Part shown: positions 1,888 through 62,798 of the stretch, piece after piece
How the letters are laid out: every line of letters starts with the position of its first letter
Position numbering within the stretch: the first letter of the stretch is position 1
From: a bacterium
GTDB taxonomy: Bacteria; Patescibacteriota; Minisyncoccia; Phycocordibacterales; CALRBL01
Length of the DNA stretch: 64,000 bases
Direction: 5' to 3'
Assembly (NCBI GenBank): GCA_027487075.1
Contig: JAIYEG010000010.1
Location: 111,270 to 175,269, forward strand
Notes under the pieces: generated by a model
The model's database searches: none
Seen by the model: only the letters and a program-made list of their open reading frames with translations
Told to the model about the DNA's origin: nothing
Translations under genes and position numbers: made by a program

Positions 1888-4800
1888 CTACAACGCAGGA
1901 GCTTCAACAGGAGCTGATTCTTCTACGGGAGGAGTCACCGTTTCTTCTTCAGTTACGTGAGTATCTACGGTAGTCTCAGTTGTCGTTGAAGTTGTCGTAG
2001 ATTCTTCGGTTGTCGGATCAGTATGTGTGGAATCGGTATAACTTACAGAAACGGGACGACTTGAATTCTCAAGCAATTGATCAACCTGATCTCGAGAAAG
2101 ACAGGTCTCACCACTTGCATCGCTAATACAAAGCTTATCGGTCTTCACTTCTTTTGTCTCAAAGAACGTAGCCATACTTTCGATCTTCTTCCACATTTCC
2201 TGCATACCAGCAATAATAAGCGCTGGGAGACGTGAGTAGTTGATTCCCATGAATCCATCGGTTTTATTCACAAACGTAATTTCTGGGAAAATCTTTTCCA
2301 TATCCTGCGCAATGAAGCCGAAATCCATCTTACCCTCTGTATCACCTTTCCATGTATATGACACGGGATTAAGCACAAGAAGTTTCTGAAGAGTCGTTGA
2401 AGCCTGTTCAGTAGTAGATGCAAGCGACACAACATTATCTTTCAAGCGTTCATCAGAAGTATTGGTGGTAAGTACACCATCTGCTGTGATACGAATATCA
2501 TTTGCAGCTGCTGCGCTCCCTACCGCCGTGAATTGTGCATTGCCTGTTACGACGAGTCTTTGCAACGGAGTCGTAGTGCCTATCCCCACGTTTCCAGAGC
2601 TAAGAATTGACAACTTTTCCTGATCAGACGCAATACCTGGAGTGACGAATGCAAACCTACCATTTCCTAGGCTGTCAGCAGCAATGAACGTAAATACTCC
2701 AAAGTCTCTATCACCCGAACTATCAAACCCACGGAATTGAATTTTCCCAAGCCAATCCCCTGGCGATATAACCACTGGCAAAGCCGCAGTTCCACGAGAT
2801 CGTGTAATAAGAATACCTCCAGCTCCTGCCGCTGCGTCGTTTGTGCTATATCTCTTAAACTGACCAAGTCCTACAGTTCCCTCAACTGCGAGAGGAAAAC
2901 CTGGAGTTGCTATACCAATACCAAGACGTGAATTAGTATTATCCCAGAACAAGTTTGCATTACTCTGGTTTAATGAACCTCCCGTTGCAAAGAATGGAAT
3001 CGAACCAGCGGTAAAATTAGTAAAGGTTGATGAAGCAACACTCAACGTTCCCGTACCAAGAATATTTCCCGCAACGGAGAGTCTTGTACTTGGAGAACTT
3101 GTACCAATACCCACGTTACCAAAGACGTCAACTTTCAAATGCGGTGTCCATGTTGTGCCGTTATGACCCATCACTGAGAAACCGCCTGTGCCGCTGTTTC
3201 GTGTATCAAAGACAATCTCAGCACCTCCGCGTTGTGCACTATTTGTATAGTTATTTCCAAACATCTGAATATATCCACCCTTAGGAGTTCCTGACCCATC
3301 AAGAATTCCCATATTCAATAGATCTGTTGCATCATCTTTGAACACACGCGATGAAGCTCCTGTAAGTGCGATATTACCATTGACATCAAGTCGAGCTGAA
3401 GGAGTGCTGGTACCGATACCCACATTTCCTGATTGAAGCACCGTAAAGAATGTTGAACCACTTGATGATGCAACCGTGAATGGATTATATCCTGCGTTAC
3501 CCCTCACGAAGAATGAAGTAAGCGTAGAGGTACCATTAACTCCAGCGAGTAATCCTGTATCAAACAAGCTACCAGATGTAAGCGTATTATCTGATCCCCA
3601 TGTCACCAAGCGATTCACGATGCCGTAGCCACCAAGTGCATTTTGTTTTGTTGACGGACGTAAGGTTGCATTGATTTCATTAAGAAATGCATCTGCAATA
3701 TGGAGCATACCACTATCGTTCGGATGAATTCCGTCGTTTATATAATCTTGCGTTAGAACCATGTACGACGCTGTATCAACATAAGCGATATTCAACCCAT
3801 CAGCAGCAAGAAGTCGTACATTTTCTTTTGTTCGCTCATTGTATGCATAAATGGTAGCTGCGGACGGAGATCCTGAAGAAGCAAGTATAGTACCACCCAC
3901 AAATACTGCAGGACCTTTATTGAGACTAAAACCCTTATTACCTGCCGCCCAATCAAAGTACACTTTATTTGATGCACTCGTTGGTGAAGTTACGGTCAAT
4001 ACCACAGTATGAGTCCCTTCAGAAAGATTAGGAATTCTCAAAAGCGCTGAGCCGAAATTGCGATTACGTTGAGGTGTCAAAATTTGCCCACCCGATGTTC
4101 CTGTATTTGAATATGTTCCATAATTAACCCCGTCGATGGTAACCGAGAATTGCCCTCCATTTCCGTCTTCCATCGTGTATGCAATATAAGCAGTAGTACC
4201 CTTGATCGTGAACGTTGCGGTAGCACCGTTTGTAGTCGAGTACCTACCTATATTGCCTCCATAATAAGAGCTATCAAGCCATGTTCCTGCGTACACAGGA
4301 CTCGATGATCCTGTAGACTGTCCTATTACTTTATTTTCATGTGGAATTGCTAACCATGCATTCGCAGCTCTTTGGAATAATTGTGAGTTGGTGAGTTGTC
4401 CTGTTGAGAAATATGCTGAGAGGTCGTTCGTTCCTATCATATAGGTAAAGAGCTCTGAGGAAGTTCCGCTCACAATCTTCTGATATACAAATTCCTGAGA
4501 ATCTGCTGCAGCATCTCCACTTCGAGCTCTCTTTGTAATAGGGATACCAAGAGTATTAGCAATGGCATTAAAATACTGATTTGCTGCGCTGATAGACGTA
4601 CAACATCCTTCAGTTATAGAATCACCAAACGCAGTGTAGCTACTATAGGTGTGAATGATTGGTGCTTTAACAATATTTGAAGCGTATAGAGATTCAACAG
4701 TTGTAGTGCCGTTTACAGCAAGCTTAACTCCGGGAGTTGTGGTTCCAATACCCACATTTCCATTGCTAAGGATAGTGAATTTCTCTTGATCTTCAGCGAT

Positions 4801-7257
4801 ACCTGGTGCCATAAATGCAAACCTTCCATTACCGACTGTGTCAGAAGCAATAAATGCAAATGCGCCATAGTCAATATCAGCTGAACCATCAAAGCCACGG
4901 AACTGCACCTTACCAAGCCAATCTCCCGCATTCACTGGTAAAGGACTCGCCTGACTACCTTGTGCTCGGGTAAGCAAGAAACCTCCCGAACTTGCGGCGT
5001 TTGAACTCACTCCGTTTGCTGCATAGCGCTTCAATGAGGCAAGTGCACTTGCCCCTTCAATTTGAAGCATGAACGCTGGGTTTGCAGTTCCAATACCCAC
5101 ATTTCCTGATCCAGCATTGACAAAGAGTGATGGATTACTACTTGTTCCTACCCGCAAACTTCCCCACACATCGAGTCTCTGTGAAGGAGTGGTTGTTCCA
5201 ATACCAACATTTCCCGATGAATCAACGACCAATCGAGAGGCATTTGCCATATCATCAAAAATAGCAAACTTTCCACCACCAAGACCCGAAGTGTTGTTGG
5301 TGCTTACAAAAGAGTATGATCGTCCACCTGTTGCAGGATCCTGAAGTTGAACACCTGTCGAAGTGGTGAGACCTGTTCCTACAATATGCAGTGCGCGGTT
5401 TGGTGTGCTTGTACCGATCCCCACGCTTCCACCAAATGAGGCGAATGTGGCTCCCTGGCTTGTTACCCTACCAGTACCAGTATTATTTACCAGATTTGTA
5501 ATGCCGGTGCGTTGCATTGTTCCCGATTCAAACAATTCAGCAGTACCCGACAGTGACACGAGATAAGGAAGCGGCGTTACGTTATTAACAATAATAGTTG
5601 CACCGCTCATTTTTATTTTTCCAGAACTTGCACTCACCATACTGTCTACTCCTACGTCATAGGTTTCGAGATAAAAATTAGGATTGACGAGTGAGACGTT
5701 TGCGCCCGTCGAAACGATGTATGGTCCTGAAAGTGAACCCCCAGGATTTTCAAAGTGATTGTTGCTCAATACGATTGAAAAAGCGCTGGCACCGATATTT
5801 ACACGACATGAATCAAATGATCCTCCATCAAAAATTCCTGATGCAAGTCCTCCTTGCAAATCTACACAAGTAGCAGATGATGTGCCATTGGTATTTGCAA
5901 AGGTTGTATCTCTAAACATCAGATTTTCTCCACTATTAAAGAGGCCATTAGGGTAAAAGAGGTTCTTACCGTTATTAACAATAATAGAGTGATCAAACTT
6001 TGTGAGCCATGTCTGATCTCCGTATTGAATTCCGATACCGAAACCTTGAATTTTTATACTATCTCCCAAGAACCCCGTTGCTCCATTGTTTCCTCCGAGC
6101 ATAATACCGATAGTTGGATTGCTGCGATTGGTACCTGACAACACAAGATCACGCAGACCAGAGCCAAACGTTAACGTACCAGGGAAATTAAACGTAAATG
6201 CCGTACCCGTACTTGGGGTATACAGCAATCGAGTACACTCTCCCGCACCCTGCAAAACAACTCGTTTATTAATAAGAATTGAAGTGATGTGATATACACC
6301 ACAAGGGAAATACACAACTCCTGCAGAATCAGAAGCTGCAGCAGATATAGCAGCAAGCACTGCAGTCGTATCATCAGCTGATCCATCACCTACGGCCCCA
6401 TACGCTTTTACGTTTGCCACTTGTCCATTCTTATCAAAAATTGAAGCTTTGAGTGATCCCCCCACTTCTACTTGTCCTCCACCTCTATTCAAAATAAGCG
6501 GGTTGGTGCCATTTGCTCCCGAATCAATAACAGCAGAACTACTAGCATTCACCCACAAACGAAGTGATCCATTTACTCCGCTATTTACCAAAGCAATTCC
6601 TCCAGCACTTGAATCAATACCTTGGAAAATCTCAAGGCGTCCTCGAGAAACGTTTGACGTCCCTATTCCCACATTTCCATTTAAATAGTACGCGGTAGTT
6701 CCCGTTGCAGCCCACGGACTGACAAGACCATTATCAAGAATATCGGCAATCTGATCGGTAAGTGTGTCCACATCGGTTTGTACACCATCAATTCTTTCTT
6801 CAAGACTTCTTACACGACGTGCGAGTCCGGATGTGTTTCCTCCTCCACCCGTAGTACGCACCTGAGTTATAATTGTTGTCGTTGCCGGAACATAACTCTC
6901 ATAATAATTAATTGTTGTATTGTTGGTGGTAACGATAACAGGATACAACGTTGCACCAAGTGACTGATTGAGTGTTGCTTTTGCTTCTTTAATTTCTTCG
7001 GGAGCATACGTAAACACGGTTGGAACAACTGAACCATCGTTAGATGAAATAGTGGCTGGTTGAGGAACAACATACGAAAGCACGGAATCAACAGCTGATG
7101 CGAACGTACGATAAAACTTATCATACAGAGAAAAGACTGACGAAGAAAATCCGGCTGCCGCAGAAACCTGAGGCAACGCACATGAAAAAACAAGCATTGC
7201 AATGAGAATGTAGTGTCGTGGTGTACTGAAGTTTTTCATTTGCAATATATAAATCAC
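1888..7257 (-). CDS. Giant secreted multidomain protein: signal peptide, pectate-lyase-3 (tailspike-like) beta-helix, Gly-rich tail-fibre-like repeats, SGNH/GDSL hydrolase, more repeats, C-terminal peptidase-S74 intramolecular-chaperone domain, Thr/Glu-rich tail
   Basis: 1789-aa ORF; the likely start is MKNFSTP at about 7239, giving a signal peptide ...ALPQVSAAAG. KAYGAVGDGSADDTTAVLAAI sits at about 6361-6420. GDSL blocks FGDSITEG (about 4600), GTNDL and DGIHPND (about 3700) are present. More than 10 repeats of SGNVGIGT(S/T)TP...RL.V.G occur. The C-terminus has SDERLKDNV...LNPVSYTWK...GFIAQDMEKIFPE (about 2170-2450), typical of the S74 chaperone domain of phage tail fibres and endosialidases. 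Confidence 0.75.
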   Translation of the reverse strand: MIYILQMKNFSTPRHYILIAMLVFSCALPQVSAAAGFSSSVFSLYDKFYRTFASAVDSVLSYVVPQPATISSNDGSVVPTVFTYAPEEIKEAKATLNQSLGATLYPVIVTTNNTTINYYESYVPATTTIITQVRTTGGGGNTSGLARRVRSLEERIDGVQTDVDTLTDQIADILDNGLVSPWAATGTTAYYLNGNVGIGTSNVSRGRLEIFQGIDSSAGGIALVNSGVNGSLRLWVNASSSAVIDSGANGTNPLILNRGGGQVEVGGSLKASIFDKNGQVANVKAYGAVGDGSADDTTAVLAAISAAASDSAGVVYFPCGVYHITSILINKRVVLQGAGECTRLLYTPSTGTAFTFNFPGTLTFGSGLRDLVLSGTNRSNPTIGIMLGGNNGATGFLGDSIKIQGFGIGIQYGDQTWLTKFDHSIIVNNGKNLFYPNGLFNSGENLMFRDTTFANTNGTSSATCVDLQGGLASGIFDGGSFDSCRVNIGASAFSIVLSNNHFENPGGSLSGPYIVSTGANVSLVNPNFYLETYDVGVDSMVSASSGKIKMSGATIIVNNVTPLPYLVSLSGTAELFESGTMQRTGITNLVNNTGTGRVTSQGATFASFGGSVGIGTSTPNRALHIVGTGLTTSTGVQLQDPATGGRSYSFVSTNNTSGLGGGKFAIFDDMANASRLVVDSSGNVGIGTTTPSQRLDVWGSLRVGTSSNPSLFVNAGSGNVGIGTANPAFMLQIEGASALASLKRYAANGVSSNAASSGGFLLTRAQGSQASPLPVNAGDWLGKVQFRGFDGSADIDYGAFAFIASDTVGNGRFAFMAPGIAEDQEKFTILSNGNVGIGTTTPGVKLAVNGTTTVESLYASNIVKAPIIHTYSSYTAFGDSITEGCCTSISAANQYFNAIANTLGIPITKRARSGDAAADSQEFVYQKIVSGTSSELFTYMIGTNDLSAYFSTGQLTNSQLFQRAANAWLAIPHENKVIGQSTGSSSPVYAGTWLDSSYYGGNIGRYSTTNGATATFTIKGTTAYIAYTMEDGNGGQFSVTIDGVNYGTYSNTGTSGGQILTPQRNRNFGSALLRIPNLSEGTHTVVLTVTSPTSASNKVYFDWAAGNKGFSLNKGPAVFVGGTILASSGSPSAATIYAYNERTKENVRLLAADGLNIAYVDTASYMVLTQDYINDGIHPNDSGMLHIADAFLNEINATLRPSTKQNALGGYGIVNRLVTWGSDNTLTSGSLFDTGLLAGVNGTSTLTSFFVRGNAGYNPFTVASSSGSTFFTVLQSGNVGIGTSTPSARLDVNGNIALTGASSRVFKDDATDLLNMGILDGSGTPKGGYIQMFGNNYTNSAQRGGAEIVFDTRNSGTGGFSVMGHNGTTWTPHLKVDVFGNVGIGTSSPSTRLSVAGNILGTGTLSVASSTFTNFTAGSIPFFATGGSLNQSNANLFWDNTNSRLGIGIATPGFPLAVEGTVGLGQFKRYSTNDAAAGAGGILITRSRGTAALPVVISPGDWLGKIQFRGFDSSGDRDFGVFTFIAADSLGNGRFAFVTPGIASDQEKLSILSSGNVGIGTTTPLQRLVVTGNAQFTAVGSAAAANDIRITADGVLTTNTSDERLKDNVVSLASTTEQASTTLQKLLVLNPVSYTWKGDTEGKMDFGFIAQDMEKIFPEITFVNKTDGFMGINYSRLPALIIAGMQEMWKKIESMATFFETKEVKTDKLCISDASGETCLSRDQVDQLLENSSRPVSVSYTDSTHTDPTTEESTTTSTTTETTVDTHVTEEETVTPPVEESAPVEAPAL

Positions 7258-7287: not shown

Positions 7288-8856
7288 CTACGTGTTTGAG
7301 ACCTGTTTCTGTGGATTCTCGTGCTTATTAAACTTAGGTGTCACCCAAAATCCCATATAGCGCCCGAGAAGAAGTCTCGTCTGCGCATCAAGACCTGGAA
7401 TGGCCCCAAAAATAATGATAGTGACCGGCACCAAGAGCCACTGGAAAAACATGAGGATGCGTGTTCGAGGCTTACCATCAGCACGAATAGCTGGAGGCAA
7501 GAAGCTTAAGAAGACAAACGCACTCACCACAAGTCCTAACATCGCAAGAATCATCAGATTTCTTGTGATAAACGGAAGATTGTATGAGAGCACGGTTGAA
7601 TTGAATACTTTTCCACCAATCGCAAGAGGTAACCATCCCAGAAGGAAAATAAAAATAGGATTTGTTGCAAGTGACCAATACCCCTCAAGTTGAATAAGAG
7701 TGGTCTTAATTTTTTTGCGGAGTGGAATTGCCTTATCTTTGATAAAACCAAAAAGAATGTACGGCACATTCTCTGCACCCCATGCCCAACGTCGCTGTTG
7801 TTTGTAAATATTTTTAAGAGTCTCAAAGAATGTCGGTGCAAGGTTTGCATCCATTGATACCGGATATGAGATAGATACCGTACGATAATTCCCTTCGTAC
7901 GCAAAGTATGCATTCCAGAAAATACGAGAATCCTCTGACACCATATTGCGCTGCCAATACCCAATCTCATACAGTGTTTTAAACGGTACACTGTGTGACG
8001 AGAAGGTGACGTTACGCTCTGGTCGCTCTTGTTGGGTCATCTGCCAAAAGGTTCCTGATCCAGCAACAACACGAGACAATGCAGGTGCATTCCAAATGTT
8101 GTTGTTATAAAACGGCACCGGCTGATATGAAGCATGATAAGGATCTTCTTCAGTAAGGAAATACCATGTCACACACTGGAAGTAGTGAGGATACACGACC
8201 GTATCAATATCAAACGCAGACACCATGACGTCTTCATAGGGAATACGCTCAACATCAAGCACTTCTACACGAGCTCGTTCGATTGCCCATGAAATATTAG
8301 CTCCCTTTCCTGCCATTTCACCGGGAAGCCCTTCGGGATGAATTGTCGTGATGAAGTGTCCAAACTTGTCCGCATACATTGACTTTATCAATGCTGCAAG
8401 GTGCTCAGCCGACTTCCCTCGTTTTCCCTCGGCCGCGAGAACAACAATAATTTTTTTATGATCTGTCTTCGTAGCAAGAAGTGACTTCACGCTATTTTCA
8501 ATGGTTTCCTGCCCCTCGCTATAGAACGGCAAAATCACCATATGATAGATATGGTCATGCTTTACCTCGCTTAACATCTTGTCCCAATCTGCATGCAAGT
8601 TGTGCGTGATTCTTCGCCAATTTCTGCTGAGATAAAATGAAAGATAGATGGTCTTCAAAAGCCAGTAGAGGTCGAAGATGATGATGAAAATTGCTGCAGC
8701 AACAGGAAAAAAGTACGAGAGCGCCACGGTACCAAAAAGAGAACCCCACGAAAGGATCCCTGGAACCATCTCAAGAAATCGATAGAGTATATAGTCTTTA
8801 CCAGTGAGTTCGGTTGCTCTACCAACGTGAAAGTAAGGAGAGTTCTTATATGACAT
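7288..8856 (-). CDS. Family 2 glycosyltransferase, membrane-bound, processive type with QxxRW motif
   Basis: The ORF 7288..8877 begins with GTG inside the tRNA-Thr gene, so the ATG at 8856 (MSYKNSPYF) is more likely. It contains D,D motifs and QQRRWAWG with flanking TM helices, a cellulose/chitin-synthase-like fold. Confidence 0.7.
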   Translation of the reverse strand: MSYKNSPYFHVGRATELTGKDYILYRFLEMVPGILSWGSLFGTVALSYFFPVAAAIFIIIFDLYWLLKTIYLSFYLSRNWRRITHNLHADWDKMLSEVKHDHIYHMVILPFYSEGQETIENSVKSLLATKTDHKKIIVVLAAEGKRGKSAEHLAALIKSMYADKFGHFITTIHPEGLPGEMAGKGANISWAIERARVEVLDVERIPYEDVMVSAFDIDTVVYPHYFQCVTWYFLTEEDPYHASYQPVPFYNNNIWNAPALSRVVAGSGTFWQMTQQERPERNVTFSSHSVPFKTLYEIGYWQRNMVSEDSRIFWNAYFAYEGNYRTVSISYPVSMDANLAPTFFETLKNIYKQQRRWAWGAENVPYILFGFIKDKAIPLRKKIKTTLIQLEGYWSLATNPIFIFLLGWLPLAIGGKVFNSTVLSYNLPFITRNLMILAMLGLVVSAFVFLSFLPPAIRADGKPRTRILMFFQWLLVPVTIIIFGAIPGLDAQTRLLLGRYMGFWVTPKFNKHENPQKQVSNT

Positions 8857-57183: not shown

Positions 57184-57369
57184 AAAAGGGACAGGCACCT
57201 TTTTATAGAAGTAATTGAGCTGTAGAATGTTCTCGCCTGGAGAAAACATTGCGCAAGCACGACGGTGCGAGCATAAGAATTTTCTAGTAAGAAAATATCT
57301 GTGTTTTCGAAGGGCGTAGAAGATTGTACAACCAAGTTGCTTGGTGAAAAAAGGTGCCTGTCCCCTTTT
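57184..57369. repeat. Copy C of the TIR-flanked long-hairpin intergenic element, about 186 bp
   Basis: The TIRs are aaaagggacaggcaccttttt and aaaaaaggtgcctgtcccctttt, and the core is gcgagcataagaattttctagtaagaaaatatctgtgttttcgaag. The right TIR overlaps the prfB stop, and the left TIR ends 20 nt before the cyt-b5-like start. Confidence 0.6.
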
Positions 57370-58225
57370 ATTTGATAAACAAATCGAGATCTCCAGCGAG
57401 CACACTTTCGACATCACTCGTCTCTACTTCAGTACGATGATCCTTCACCATCTTGTAGGGATGAAGCACATACGAACGGATCTGGTTGCCCCATTCATTG
57501 TCACTCGTCTTTGAGACATACATTCCCTTTTCTTTTGCCAAACGCTCTTCTTCTTTGCGTACATAGAGCTTTGCCTTGAGGAGCGCGATCGCTTTTTCTT
57601 TGTTTTGTGCCTGACTGCGCTCACTCGTCACATGCACTGATATTTTTGTCGGGATATGAAGCATGCGCACCGCGGTCTCGCGCTTGTTCACGTTTTGTCC
57701 TCCAGGACCTCCGGCGCGTGCGATCGTCACTTCGATTTCATCATCTTTGAGTTCAATATCTGCCGAGGTATGTTCGAACTTCGGAATCACTTCCACCATA
57801 GCAAACGATGTCTGTCGCAAACCCTTCGCACCAAATGGCGAAATGCGCACCAAGCGATGGACACCTGATTCATTCTTCAAATCACCGTATACATTTTTTC
57901 CTGATACTTCAAAGGTCACATTACGGATACCATTGTGATCATTTTGATGTTCATGAATAAGCACACTTTTCCAACCCCGCTTTTCGATGTATCGCTGATA
58001 CATATCAAAGAGCATACGTGCCCAATCTTCGGCATCATCTCCTCCTGCACCAGCAAAGATAGTGACCACGGCATCACCGCGATCGTACTTTTTTTCGGGA
58101 TCACCATCGCGCTTGAGTGCATTGAGTTCTTGTACGAGCTCCTGCGCTTTATCTTTGTTTGCCCAGAATCCTGGATCAAGCATGGCGTCTTCGATTTCTT
58201 TGATGCGTTGTTCGTATGCTGACAT
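57368..58225 (-). CDS. prfB: Peptide chain release factor 2 without the programmed +1 frameshift leader
   Basis: It has the SPF tripeptide ([10 protein letters not shown]) and GGQ ([19 protein letters not shown]). It starts [21 protein letters not shown], which aligns to the region just after the frameshift site of E. coli and B. subtilis RF2. The ORF track's 58226-58294 extension is a TTG read-through of the tRNA-Thr gene. Confidence 0.85.
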
Positions 58226-58233
58226 GTATATTG

Positions 58234-58309
58234 TGGAGCCAAAGGGCGGGATCGAACCGCCGACCCTTCGCTTACGATGCGAATGCTCTACCAACTGAGC
58301 TACTTTGGC
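58234..58309 (-). tRNA. tRNA-Thr(CGU), CCA encoded
   Basis: GCCAAAG-TA-GCTC-AGTTGGTA-GAGC-A-TTCGC-ATCGTAA-GCGAA-GGGTC-GGCGG-TTCGATC-CCGCC-CTTTGGC-T-CCA. Confidence 0.85.
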
Positions 58310-61911: not shown

Positions 61912-62178
61912 AGCCGTTGATCGGGATTGAACCGATGACCTTTTCCTTCGTTGATACCTCCACTTCGCAGTGCTTATAGGAGGACTAGACTGTATCTTAC
62001 GCATACTCTTATGAGTGAAGCGCCCCTTGTCAGTCGTTCGGGCTCATAGATAATCTATCGCCACGGTCTTACCCACGTGTGTGGACTTTAACCGTTATTC
62101 GGGCTTCATTCTGCAGTTTCCCGCAGAGAGGGCTATGCAATAACCATGGAAATGCTCTACCAACTGAGCTACAACGGC
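61912..62178 (-). tRNA. tRNA-Thr(GGU) interrupted in the anticodon loop by a 194-nt group I intron
   Basis: The 5' exon is GCCGTTG-TA-GCTC-AGTTGGTA-GAGC-A-TTTCC-ATGGT (62178..62143). The 3' exon is AA-GGAAA-AGGTC-ATCGG-TTCAATC-CCGAT-CAACGGC-T (61948..61912). Joined, they give a canonical 73-nt cloverleaf with the anticodon loop ATGGTAA. Confidence 0.75.
61949..62142 (-). mobile_element. Group I self-splicing intron within the tRNA-Thr anticodon loop, between positions 36 and 37
   Basis: Core elements are present: P-like TGCGGGAAA, Q-like CTGCAG, R-like CGAACGACTGACAAGG, and S-like AAGATACAGTCTAGTCC with P7 GACTG/CAGTC. The 5' exon ends in U, which can pair with the G of an internal guide GCC 10 nt into the intron. 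The intron ends in G (omega-G). Confidence 0.7.
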
Positions 62179-62210: not shown

Positions 62211-62798
62211 TTAAATATTTTCAATAACCTTACTAATAGAGGTTTTAAGCTTCATATTATTGAAATACACCGTCAAAACCCCATGTTCAGATTTTCTACC
62301 ATAACTACCCTTTCCTCTTATCTGACTCACCACAATTGATGGATAAAAGTAGTCTAAACTAAAACCCAATTCCTTAGACCAAAATTGAAGAGCGACATTT
62401 GGATCAATATCGTTAAATATTTGTAAACCAAACCTCAACTTAGTGGCATCAATTTTATAAGTGTGTATTAAAAATTTTATGAACATTTTTATCAAACTCG
62501 GATCAGTATTTCCCAACCTTACTGAATACTTATTCCTTTTATTACCCTCACCCCAAAATAATCCAATACCTAAACCAAATAAAAAATCATCATAATTACT
62601 AATGTTTTGCGGAAGAGTAAATGGATCACCTTTTATATTGTTTTTAATATAAATTGATTCTGAAATTGATCTTTTCTCAATATTAAATTTTTTCAACCAG
62701 TAATTTACTTTTGAAACTGTGTAATTTACATCAAGCGCGATTTCAGCAGCTGATTTTTTATTACTTACATATTCTCTATACAAGTATTCTTTATCCAC
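62211..62798 (-). CDS. Free-standing putative LAGLIDADG-like homing endonuclease, AT-rich, immediately upstream of the intron-containing tRNA
   Basis: 195 aa. Residues 1-45 are helix-turn-helix-like. The motif DFLFGLGIGLFWGEGNK fits a degenerate LAGLIDADG (GIGLFWGEG), followed by a basic beta-saddle-like region. GC is about 30 percent. Confidence 0.45.
   Translation of the reverse strand: MDKEYLYREYVSNKKSAAEIALDVNYTVSKVNYWLKKFNIEKRSISESIYIKNNIKGDPFTLPQNISNYDDFLFGLGIGLFWGEGNKRNKYSVRLGNTDPSLIKMFIKFLIHTYKIDATKLRFGLQIFNDIDPNVALQFWSKELGFSLDYFYPSIVVSQIRGKGSYGRKSEHGVLTVYFNNMKLKTSISKVIENI

Follow-up and report, generated by a model that had tools for sequence, protein, structure and literature searches.

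The 64,000-nucleotide (nt) stretch of contig JAIYEG010000010.1 analysed here (the window), from a bacterium of the Patescibacteriota, carries on its minus strand, at 62178..61912, a split gene for tRNA-Thr(GGU). A 36-nt 5′ half and a 37-nt 3′ half, both exact, are separated by a 194-nt insert. The reverse complement of 61912-62178 matches both tRNA halves that the original prediction had quoted for this 267-bp locus, and ARAGORN run on the joined halves returned a tRNA-Thr(GGU) of 73 nt, the host that had been proposed. The 5′ exon (62143..62178) supplies the acceptor 5′ strand, the D arm, the anticodon stem 5′ strand and the anticodon loop as far as U36. The 3′ exon (61912..61948) runs from A37 through the anticodon stem 3′ strand, the variable loop, the T arm and the acceptor 3′ strand to the discriminator U. 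Intron-less tRNA-Thr(GGU) alleles found in other Patescibacteria in the genome scan described below have the identical junction, CATGGT/AAGG. The insert (61949..62142, minus strand) has no internal open reading frame (ORF), and on the evidence that follows we regard it as very probable that it is a compact group I intron of the 'divergent' Patescibacteria class, lying between U36 and A37 of a functional tRNA-Thr(GGU).

Default ARAGORN and Rfam searches over the window called four other tRNAs and missed the split tRNA-Thr(GGU); no rRNA gene was found in the 64 kb. Genes for tRNA-Thr(UGU) and tRNA-Thr(CGU) are also encoded in the window, and over half of the threonine codons in its long ORFs are ACC or ACU. 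With its intron option (-i) ARAGORN moved the boundary by one base and called a tRNA-Pro(GGG). We rejected this call because the GCC...GGCU acceptor and discriminator match those of the window's two other threonine tRNAs, and because only boundaries with U before the intron and G as its last base fit the P1 helix and the terminal guanosine. The locus is found in identical form on contigs of two independent sequencing runs and is therefore no assembly artefact; more than 140 homologous loci exist besides.

To collect homologues, one genome per species was scanned for the tRNA-Thr(GGU) 5′ half followed by a T arm about 200 nt further on. Once tandem-tRNA artefacts had been removed, 22 split tRNA-Thr(GGU) genes were left. 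About 98 of the 120 pattern matches were discarded as not being introns, those inspected being nearly all an intact tRNA-Thr with other tRNAs or tandem tRNA-Thr genes. The lineages named in the intron-bearing genome records are Saccharibacteria, Parcubacteria, Kaiserbacteria, Komeilibacteria, Wolfebacteria, Vogelbacteria and 'Patescibacteria group'; five records are labelled only 'bacterium', and one 1.4-kb contig stands in a 'Pedobacter' bin, where it was probably mis-binned. It is from the occurrence of such homologues that the window would itself be placed among these lineages. A scan of metagenomes with the intron core added at least 120 further loci; among the matches listed, 116 lie in tRNA-Thr(GGU) at 36/37, two are truncated and two are on phage contigs. 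Altogether 143 of 151 occurrences of the family were placed automatically at position 36/37 of tRNA-Thr(GGU) and four more by inspection, the rest being the two truncated and the two phage copies. The metagenome and viral sets were retrieved by P7-strand motifs that included ATACAGTCTA, so that core invariance in them is partly circular.

RNAalifold run on 23 homologues gave the tRNA cloverleaf together with P1, P2, P4, P5, P6, P7, P8 and P9, with compensatory changes in 39 of 63 pairs; the 23 precursor tRNAs align with long invariant blocks. When P3 is included, 96.3% of the cells in this set are paired, as against 33-44% with slid partners, and none of 500 shuffles equalled this figure. One hundred metagenome copies, aligned to a covariance model that was derived from the first set and lacked P3, likewise gave 96.3% paired versus 29-48% slid. 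The covarying fold is supported over 145 related loci. The acceptor and anticodon stems also pair across the intron in the 23 homologues, with 100% pairing and compensatory changes; this covariation shows selection on the spliced tRNA.

At the 5′ splice site, P1 (62131..62145) joins exon GGU and intron UAU to AUAGCC, which contains the guide GCC, with a U36·G wobble at the cleavage position; the extension of the helix covaries. The guide had been predicted 10 nt into the intron, and it does occupy intron positions 10-12, with the exon-U/guide-G wobble present in 23/23 and 95/95 sequences. P2 (62111..62126) is the hairpin CUGCGG-GAAA-CUGCAG, all of whose pairs covary and whose loop is a GNRA tetraloop in 95 of 100 homologues. 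The two arms of this hairpin are the elements that had been put forward as P (TGCGGGAAA) and Q (CTGCAG), that is, as P4/P4′; this assignment proved wrong, the real P4 being ACGGUU/GACCGU. P4 is invariant and encloses J4/5, the covarying P5 hairpin and J5/4 (62063..62095 for the whole), and is followed by the P6 hairpin (62041..62062), whose pairs covary.

The 5′ strand of P3, CCC (62101..62103), forms a pseudoknot with GGG (62024..62026), 100% and 99.3% paired in the two sets, and covaries with it: double changes from C-G to U-A occur at all three pairs and in both sets, the second of which had been aligned with no P3 in the model. CCC/GGG was preferred to a different P3 for the window, GAAGC/GCUUC, which neither covaries nor preserves P8. 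J6/7 (CGAAC) and the P7 5′ strand GACUG, the site of the R element (62031..62040), are invariant and align to AGACUA of the RF00028 consensus. P8 (61999..62023) is a hairpin in which all four modelled pairs covary. It is followed by J8/7 (AAGAUA) and the P7 3′ strand CAGUC, or S (61988..61998), in which ATACAGTCTA is invariant and the preceding AAG nearly so, and which aligns to AAGAUAUAGUC of RF00028. R (CGAACGACTGACAAGG), S (AAGATACAGTCTAGTCC) and the GACTG/CAGTC pairing are thus present as first described, and their cores do not vary in the 23 homologues or in 95 distinct ones; GACU/AGUC contains a G-C pair, conserved here, that we take to be the guanosine-binding pair. The P9 hairpin (61957..61983) has covarying pairs, and the intron ends in the terminal guanosine (omega-G) at the 3′ splice site (61949), the final G that had been noted for the window and that is G in 143/143 homologues. 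The core helix order P3-P4-P5-P6-P7-P3′-P8-P7′ with its P3/P7 pseudoknot was therefore recovered, with compensatory changes in P2, P3, P5, P6, P8 and P9.

The link to canonical group I introns was found through a close homologue. Homologue L011 shares 80% identity with the intron of the window and, at relaxed thresholds, gives an end-to-end alignment with RF00028 (Intron_gpI) at 23.9 bits (E = 3e-4 for 311 nt). Its matches to the model comprise P1, P2 with its GAAA cap, P4, P5, P6, R (GACU) and S (AAGAUA-AGUC); RF00028's own P3 and P9 pairs are largely unformed in this alignment. Against the consensus, AACGACUG of L011 stands for AaAGACUA and AAGAUACAGUCUAA for AAGAUAUAGUCuaa, and these strings are invariant in the family. 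The family is called divergent because this score lies far under the gathering score, but it is recognisably group I. A covariance model built on an alignment that includes the window's intron (R1) gives that intron 172.4 bits, which shows only that it is a member of the model's own alignment. The original prediction of a group I intron at 36/37 of this tRNA in a bacterium of the candidate phyla radiation (CPR) type is supported by comparative structure, by the sub-threshold alignment of L011 and by earlier reports of the class in the literature.

Several points weigh against this reading. The RF00028 match that had been named as a check was not obtained, neither on the whole window at the gathering threshold nor on 401 nt around the locus at E ≤ 10; the P3-P9 fold is present by covariation, so that a missing match and a missing fold do not coincide. 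RF00028 scores even the best member of the family at no more than 23.9 bits, with a gathering score of 50. No variation in P4 or P7 occurs in the collected set, so that these two helices are uninformative for covariation, and the invariance of P7 is partly circular in the metagenome and viral sets, where the search pattern had fixed its strands. The joining segments J3/4, of about 5 nt, and J6/7, of 5 nt, exceed those of canonical introns in length, and no convincing P10 helix was found at the tRNA-Thr intron. Lastly, among the introns of Patescibacteria splicing has been assayed only for those in the Asn and Asp tRNAs (PMC13011429).

The intron core was also found on 20 viral contigs, where R1 scores 85-137 bits over the full model length. 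One contig bears three copies in a stretch of about 1.5 kb (L260:6277-6465, 6743-6935 and 7566-7748). In three phage genes, deletion of the copy from after the U to after the terminal G restored ORFs of 323, 948 and 1145 aa, and unspliced read-through meets a stop codon within 0-13 codons. The Pfam SLT domain matches across one splice junction in a tape-measure-like protein (32.2 bits, cut-off 21.3). Exon and guide covary among the phage copies (GGU/GCC, GAU/GUC and GCU/GGC), the U·G always being kept; a guide change that matches a 5′ exon other than GGU is a classic signature of P1. Because ORFs are restored, the SLT match spans the junction and exon and guide change together, these data suggest that the intron class is removed from RNA.

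Copies from IMG/VR were seen inside phage structural genes, capsid-like or tape-measure-like with an SLT domain, on eight contigs (L260, L256, L266, L253, L265, L257, L261 and L263). At the gathering threshold RF00028 reports none of the divergent-class copies on the phage contigs. It does detect one canonical group I intron (L255:5099-5361, plus strand, 78.5 bits) about 500 nt downstream of a divergent-class copy; R1 has no match to that canonical intron, and RF00028 none to its divergent neighbour. On five contigs (L250, L254, L262, L264 and L268) a coding-looking sequence, roughly ...NINAIRSNRSWK... by eye, was observed within about 170 nt upstream of the core, and the R1 match is fragmentary where it stands. 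It is possible that this stretch encodes an endonuclease within the intron, from a different family than the gene upstream of the split tRNA in the window.

That gene, ORF195 (62211..62798, minus strand), encodes 195 aa with an N-terminal helix-turn-helix (HTH) and a LAGLIDADG-like domain. It shares the strand of the tRNA, terminates 32 nt upstream of it and is probably co-transcribed with it. The gene is strongly associated with the intron. Homologues with 45-60% identity occupy the same place and strand at other loci, their ends ranging from 7 nt within the tRNA to about 150 nt upstream, and in several cases U8-A9-G10 of the tRNA serves as their stop codon. Among the 94 metagenome loci that were found by way of the intron and could be judged upstream, 31 have a full-length ORF195, six a truncated remnant and 57 none; the genome-sample loci have it full-length (8), truncated (2) or not at all (11). 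A homologue is thus present at about 40% of intron-bearing loci. Conversely, eight of nine distinct ORF195 homologues sampled precede an intron-bearing tRNA-Thr(GGU) and one an intron-less gene, the published background being an intron in three of 95 complete genomes (PMC13011429). No homologue of ORF195 was found in the 20 phage loci.

The ORF195 family has more than 730 members and no curated annotation. Its AlphaFold model (predicted local distance difference test score 87.6) shows an N-terminal HTH followed by an alpha/beta domain, the first helix of which is helix 68-84. At the C-terminal end of this helix lies the motif G-L-x-x-W-G-E-G-x-K, in which G83, E84, G85 and K87 are invariant in 44 homologues, and which hhalign places, weakly (E = 0.054), on motif 2 of I-DmoI (GLYVAEGDK). 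Pfam LAGLIDADG_3 gives weak matches in seven of the 44 members, and PHROG 'HNH endonuclease' families match all 44, by way of the HTH region only. For ORF195 itself, no match at curated thresholds came from Pfam, NCBIfam or PDB sequence profiles, no significant one from Foldseek against PDB, and none from hhalign against I-CreI. An exact-protein look-up of ORF195 and its neighbour for strains with an empty site returned the same locus only. On balance we favour, with some caution, ORF195 as a candidate free-standing homing endonuclease of the LAGLIDADG type.

A number of further observations concern the surroundings of ORF195 and of the tRNA. Truncated or frameshifted remnants of the gene, with 22-157 aa alignable, were seen upstream of intron-bearing tRNA-Thr genes (L208, L212, L213, L240, L140, L135, L016 and L053) and are consistent with decay of an endonuclease gene. 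A distant paralogue family (26-32% identity) with an HTH and the motif xLYWGEGxK...ANSDP is found near intron-bearing tRNA-Thr genes at differing positions, about 900-1200 nt downstream of the tRNA in L051, L159, L095 and L166 and upstream in L193, L197, L225 and L238; Pfam run on six of these distant paralogues matched the HTH only. Two loci (L126:1-100 and L275:1-458) have separate Pfam LAGLIDADG_3 genes upstream of the ORF195 homologue, at a distance of about 1-2.4 kb. Many homologues stand on contigs of about 1.0-1.5 kb, a length roughly equal to that of the ORF and the split tRNA together; the unit may be a place where assemblies tend to break, which would be in keeping with variation between strains or with several contexts. 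A recurrent gene order was noted in CPR loci, with tRNA-Thr(GGU), often tRNA-Thr(CGU), and then prfB, ftsE and ftsX (L123-L128, L271, L273 and L275); in the window, prfB and tRNA-Thr(CGU) are located at 57368-58309, about 3.6 kb downstream of the split tRNA. The remaining flanking genes are not conserved between loci.

Autocatalytic splicing of the Thr-class intron is a prediction, which we infer from comparative sequence. Exon GGU would pair with the intron's GCC guide in P1, with U·G at the cleavage site, and the P3-P8 and P4-P6 domains would assemble about the P3/P7 pseudoknot. A free guanosine bound at the P7 G-C pair would then attack after U36, the terminal intron G would take the same site, and the freed 3′-OH of U36 would attack after that G, ligating ...CAUGGU to AAGGAA... 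to yield the mature 73-nt tRNA. Because no convincing P10 is present, it is probably the anticodon and acceptor stems of the tRNA, paired across the intron, that would hold the exons together.

A group I-derived intron might instead be unable to splice alone and depend on a protein cofactor, which would be either a host factor or ORF195 in the role of a LAGLIDADG-type maturase. In favour of this, the core has diverged so far that RF00028 misses it, and a LAGLIDADG-like ORF195, probably co-transcribed, lies immediately upstream; some LAGLIDADG proteins do act as maturases. However, about 60% of the intron-bearing loci with enough upstream sequence have no ORF195 while their exons and core are still conserved, and the phage members lack it too. 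All structural elements needed for autocatalysis are conserved, and the putative catalytic Glu of GEG never changes among the 44 homologues, a pattern more in keeping with an active nuclease than with a pure maturase. We therefore consider dependence on a cofactor unlikely.

It is far less probable still that the insert is never removed, the locus being a broken tRNA pseudogene or what is left of an insertion event. The gene does escape standard tRNA and Rfam scans, and with tRNA-Thr(UGU) and tRNA-Thr(CGU) in the window superwobble could in principle read ACC and ACU. Yet the exons are intact and their stems covary with compensatory changes over more than 20 lineages, a covarying ribozyme-like fold is conserved in 145 loci, and the insertion is always exactly at 36/37, with U before it and G at its end; moreover, the same element must leave the phage ORFs. 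That the insert is a protein-spliced tRNA intron of the archaeal or eukaryal bulge-helix-bulge type, or some other non-group I element, is scarcely credible: its anticodon-loop site adjoins the canonical 37/38 position of protein-spliced tRNA introns, but it lies at 36/37, the pairing predicted at the 5′ junction covaries as a P1 hairpin with U·G and not as a bulge-helix-bulge, and the core matches the group I R/S consensus.

With a group I intron in a functional tRNA as the preferred reading, the position of ORF195 bears on how the intron may spread. We propose, tentatively, that the ORF-less intron and ORF195 form one mobile unit, a case of collaborative homing in a chromosomal tRNA gene across CPR bacteria, in which the two would spread together by gene conversion into empty tRNA-Thr(GGU) alleles. 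ORF195, probably as a homodimer, would cut the DNA of the anticodon stem-loop in empty alleles, and repair would copy both ORF195 and the intron; the inserted intron would split the target site and so protect the host allele. The anticodon stem-loop DNA is near-palindromic, which, speculatively, would suit a homodimeric enzyme. The patchiness of ORF195 and its decayed copies fit a cycle of invasion, decay and loss. As part of this proposal and with equal reserve, the circulation of the same intron class in phage structural genes would link phages and CPR chromosomes as reservoirs.

At two loci an ORF195 homologue was observed directly upstream of an intron-less tRNA-Thr(GGU) (L124:~3101-3175 and L059:~600-678). 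Both alleles deviate from CC...GG at anticodon-stem pair 30:40, with U-A and G-C, respectively, and this could, very speculatively with two cases, reflect immunity of the target site.

ORF-less tRNA introns have been regarded as having limited mobility (PMC13011429), and the mobile unit proposed here would, if true, contradict that published inference. A recurrent endonuclease-like gene beside the intron offers a testable account of how an ORF-less intron came to be spread phylum-wide at one site. For annotation, default tRNA and Rfam scans miss the split tRNA-Thr(GGU), so that genomes look as if they lacked a tRNA, and the intron mode of ARAGORN assigns it to Pro or Arg. The class is large, coherent and compact (about 190 nt), with more than 140 copies at one tRNA site and more in phage genes; it is invisible to RF00028, and the abundance of group I introns in CPR bacteria and their phages is therefore underestimated. 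It also represents a naturally minimal predicted ribozyme.

The tRNA-Thr intron class is already known, and the window's locus adds one member to it. The original prediction held a tRNA-Thr host to be unusual beside four known host tRNAs, a view that is outdated: Williams 2020 extends the list of tRNA intron types from 4 to 21, and Nakagawa et al. 2026 (mSystems, PMC13011429, Table 1) list 'divergent group I introns' at 36/37 of tRNA-Thr(GGU) in three complete Patescibacteria genomes (GCA_001029635.1, GCA_016700375.1 and GCA_030583745.1). Castelle et al. 2018, as cited in PMC13011429, is credited with the first report of the class. The published Thr introns are missed by RF00028 and found by tFind, and ARAGORN gives Arg(GCG) 34/35 for two of the three; by subgroup models the Thr introns belong to IA, where they lie on a long branch (PMC13011429). 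Compared by description, they and the window's intron share the host tRNA and anticodon, the site, a comparable length and the RF00028 miss, and the ARAGORN miscall as Arg(GCG) 34/35 or similar was reproduced on our homologues; nothing substantive separates them. PMC13011429 makes no mention of a flanking ORF195 gene or of phage relatives, and a literature search found no mention of either; the flanking endonuclease-like gene and the phage relatives go beyond the literature covered by that search and deserve follow-up.

Among other known introns, those of the subgroup IA in tRNA-Asn(GUU) as well as in tRNA-Asp(GUC) of Patescibacteria share the phylum and the anticodon loop with the Thr introns, which group with them with high bootstrap in the tree of PMC13011429. 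They differ in their site (35/36), in being detected by RF00028 and in self-splicing in vitro, and some Asn introns contain internal HNH genes (PMC13011429). The tRNA-Arg(CCU) introns at 36/37 likewise lie just 3′ of an anticodon ending in U, and these IC3 introns resemble the Thr class in their length of about 200 nt, their minimal P1-P9 architecture and the GNRA loop on P2. Introns of subgroup IC3 were reportedly described in Azoarcus tRNA-Ile(CAU) and Agrobacterium tRNA-Arg(CCU) by Reinhold-Hurek and Shub in 1992. The IC introns differ from the Thr class in subgroup and core sequence and, unlike it, are readily found by RF00028 and tFind; no IC introns were found in Patescibacteria tRNAs (PMC13011429).

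The canonical phage introns of subgroup IA2 are exemplified by T4 td and Twort, and subgroup IA (IA1/IA2) is characterised by the extra helices P7.1/P7.2 between P7 and P3′. The canonical L255 intron, of the IA2 type, has an R/S core (GACUA/UAGUC) closely similar to the GACUG/CAGUC of the divergent class, and the same J8/7, AAGAUA. It carries about 40 nt (P7.1/P7.2) between P7 and P3′, whereas the divergent class has only the four nucleotides ACAA there, and neither P7.1 nor P7.2 was found in any aligned member. Finally, phage collaborative or trans homing resembles the present arrangement in that a highly conserved gene holds an ORF-less intron and has an endonuclease-like gene immediately beside it, the latter in patchy and decayed copies. 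The phage systems reside in protein-coding phage genes, whereas the present intron occupies a tRNA gene on the chromosome of CPR bacteria and has beside it an enzyme predicted to be LAGLIDADG-like.

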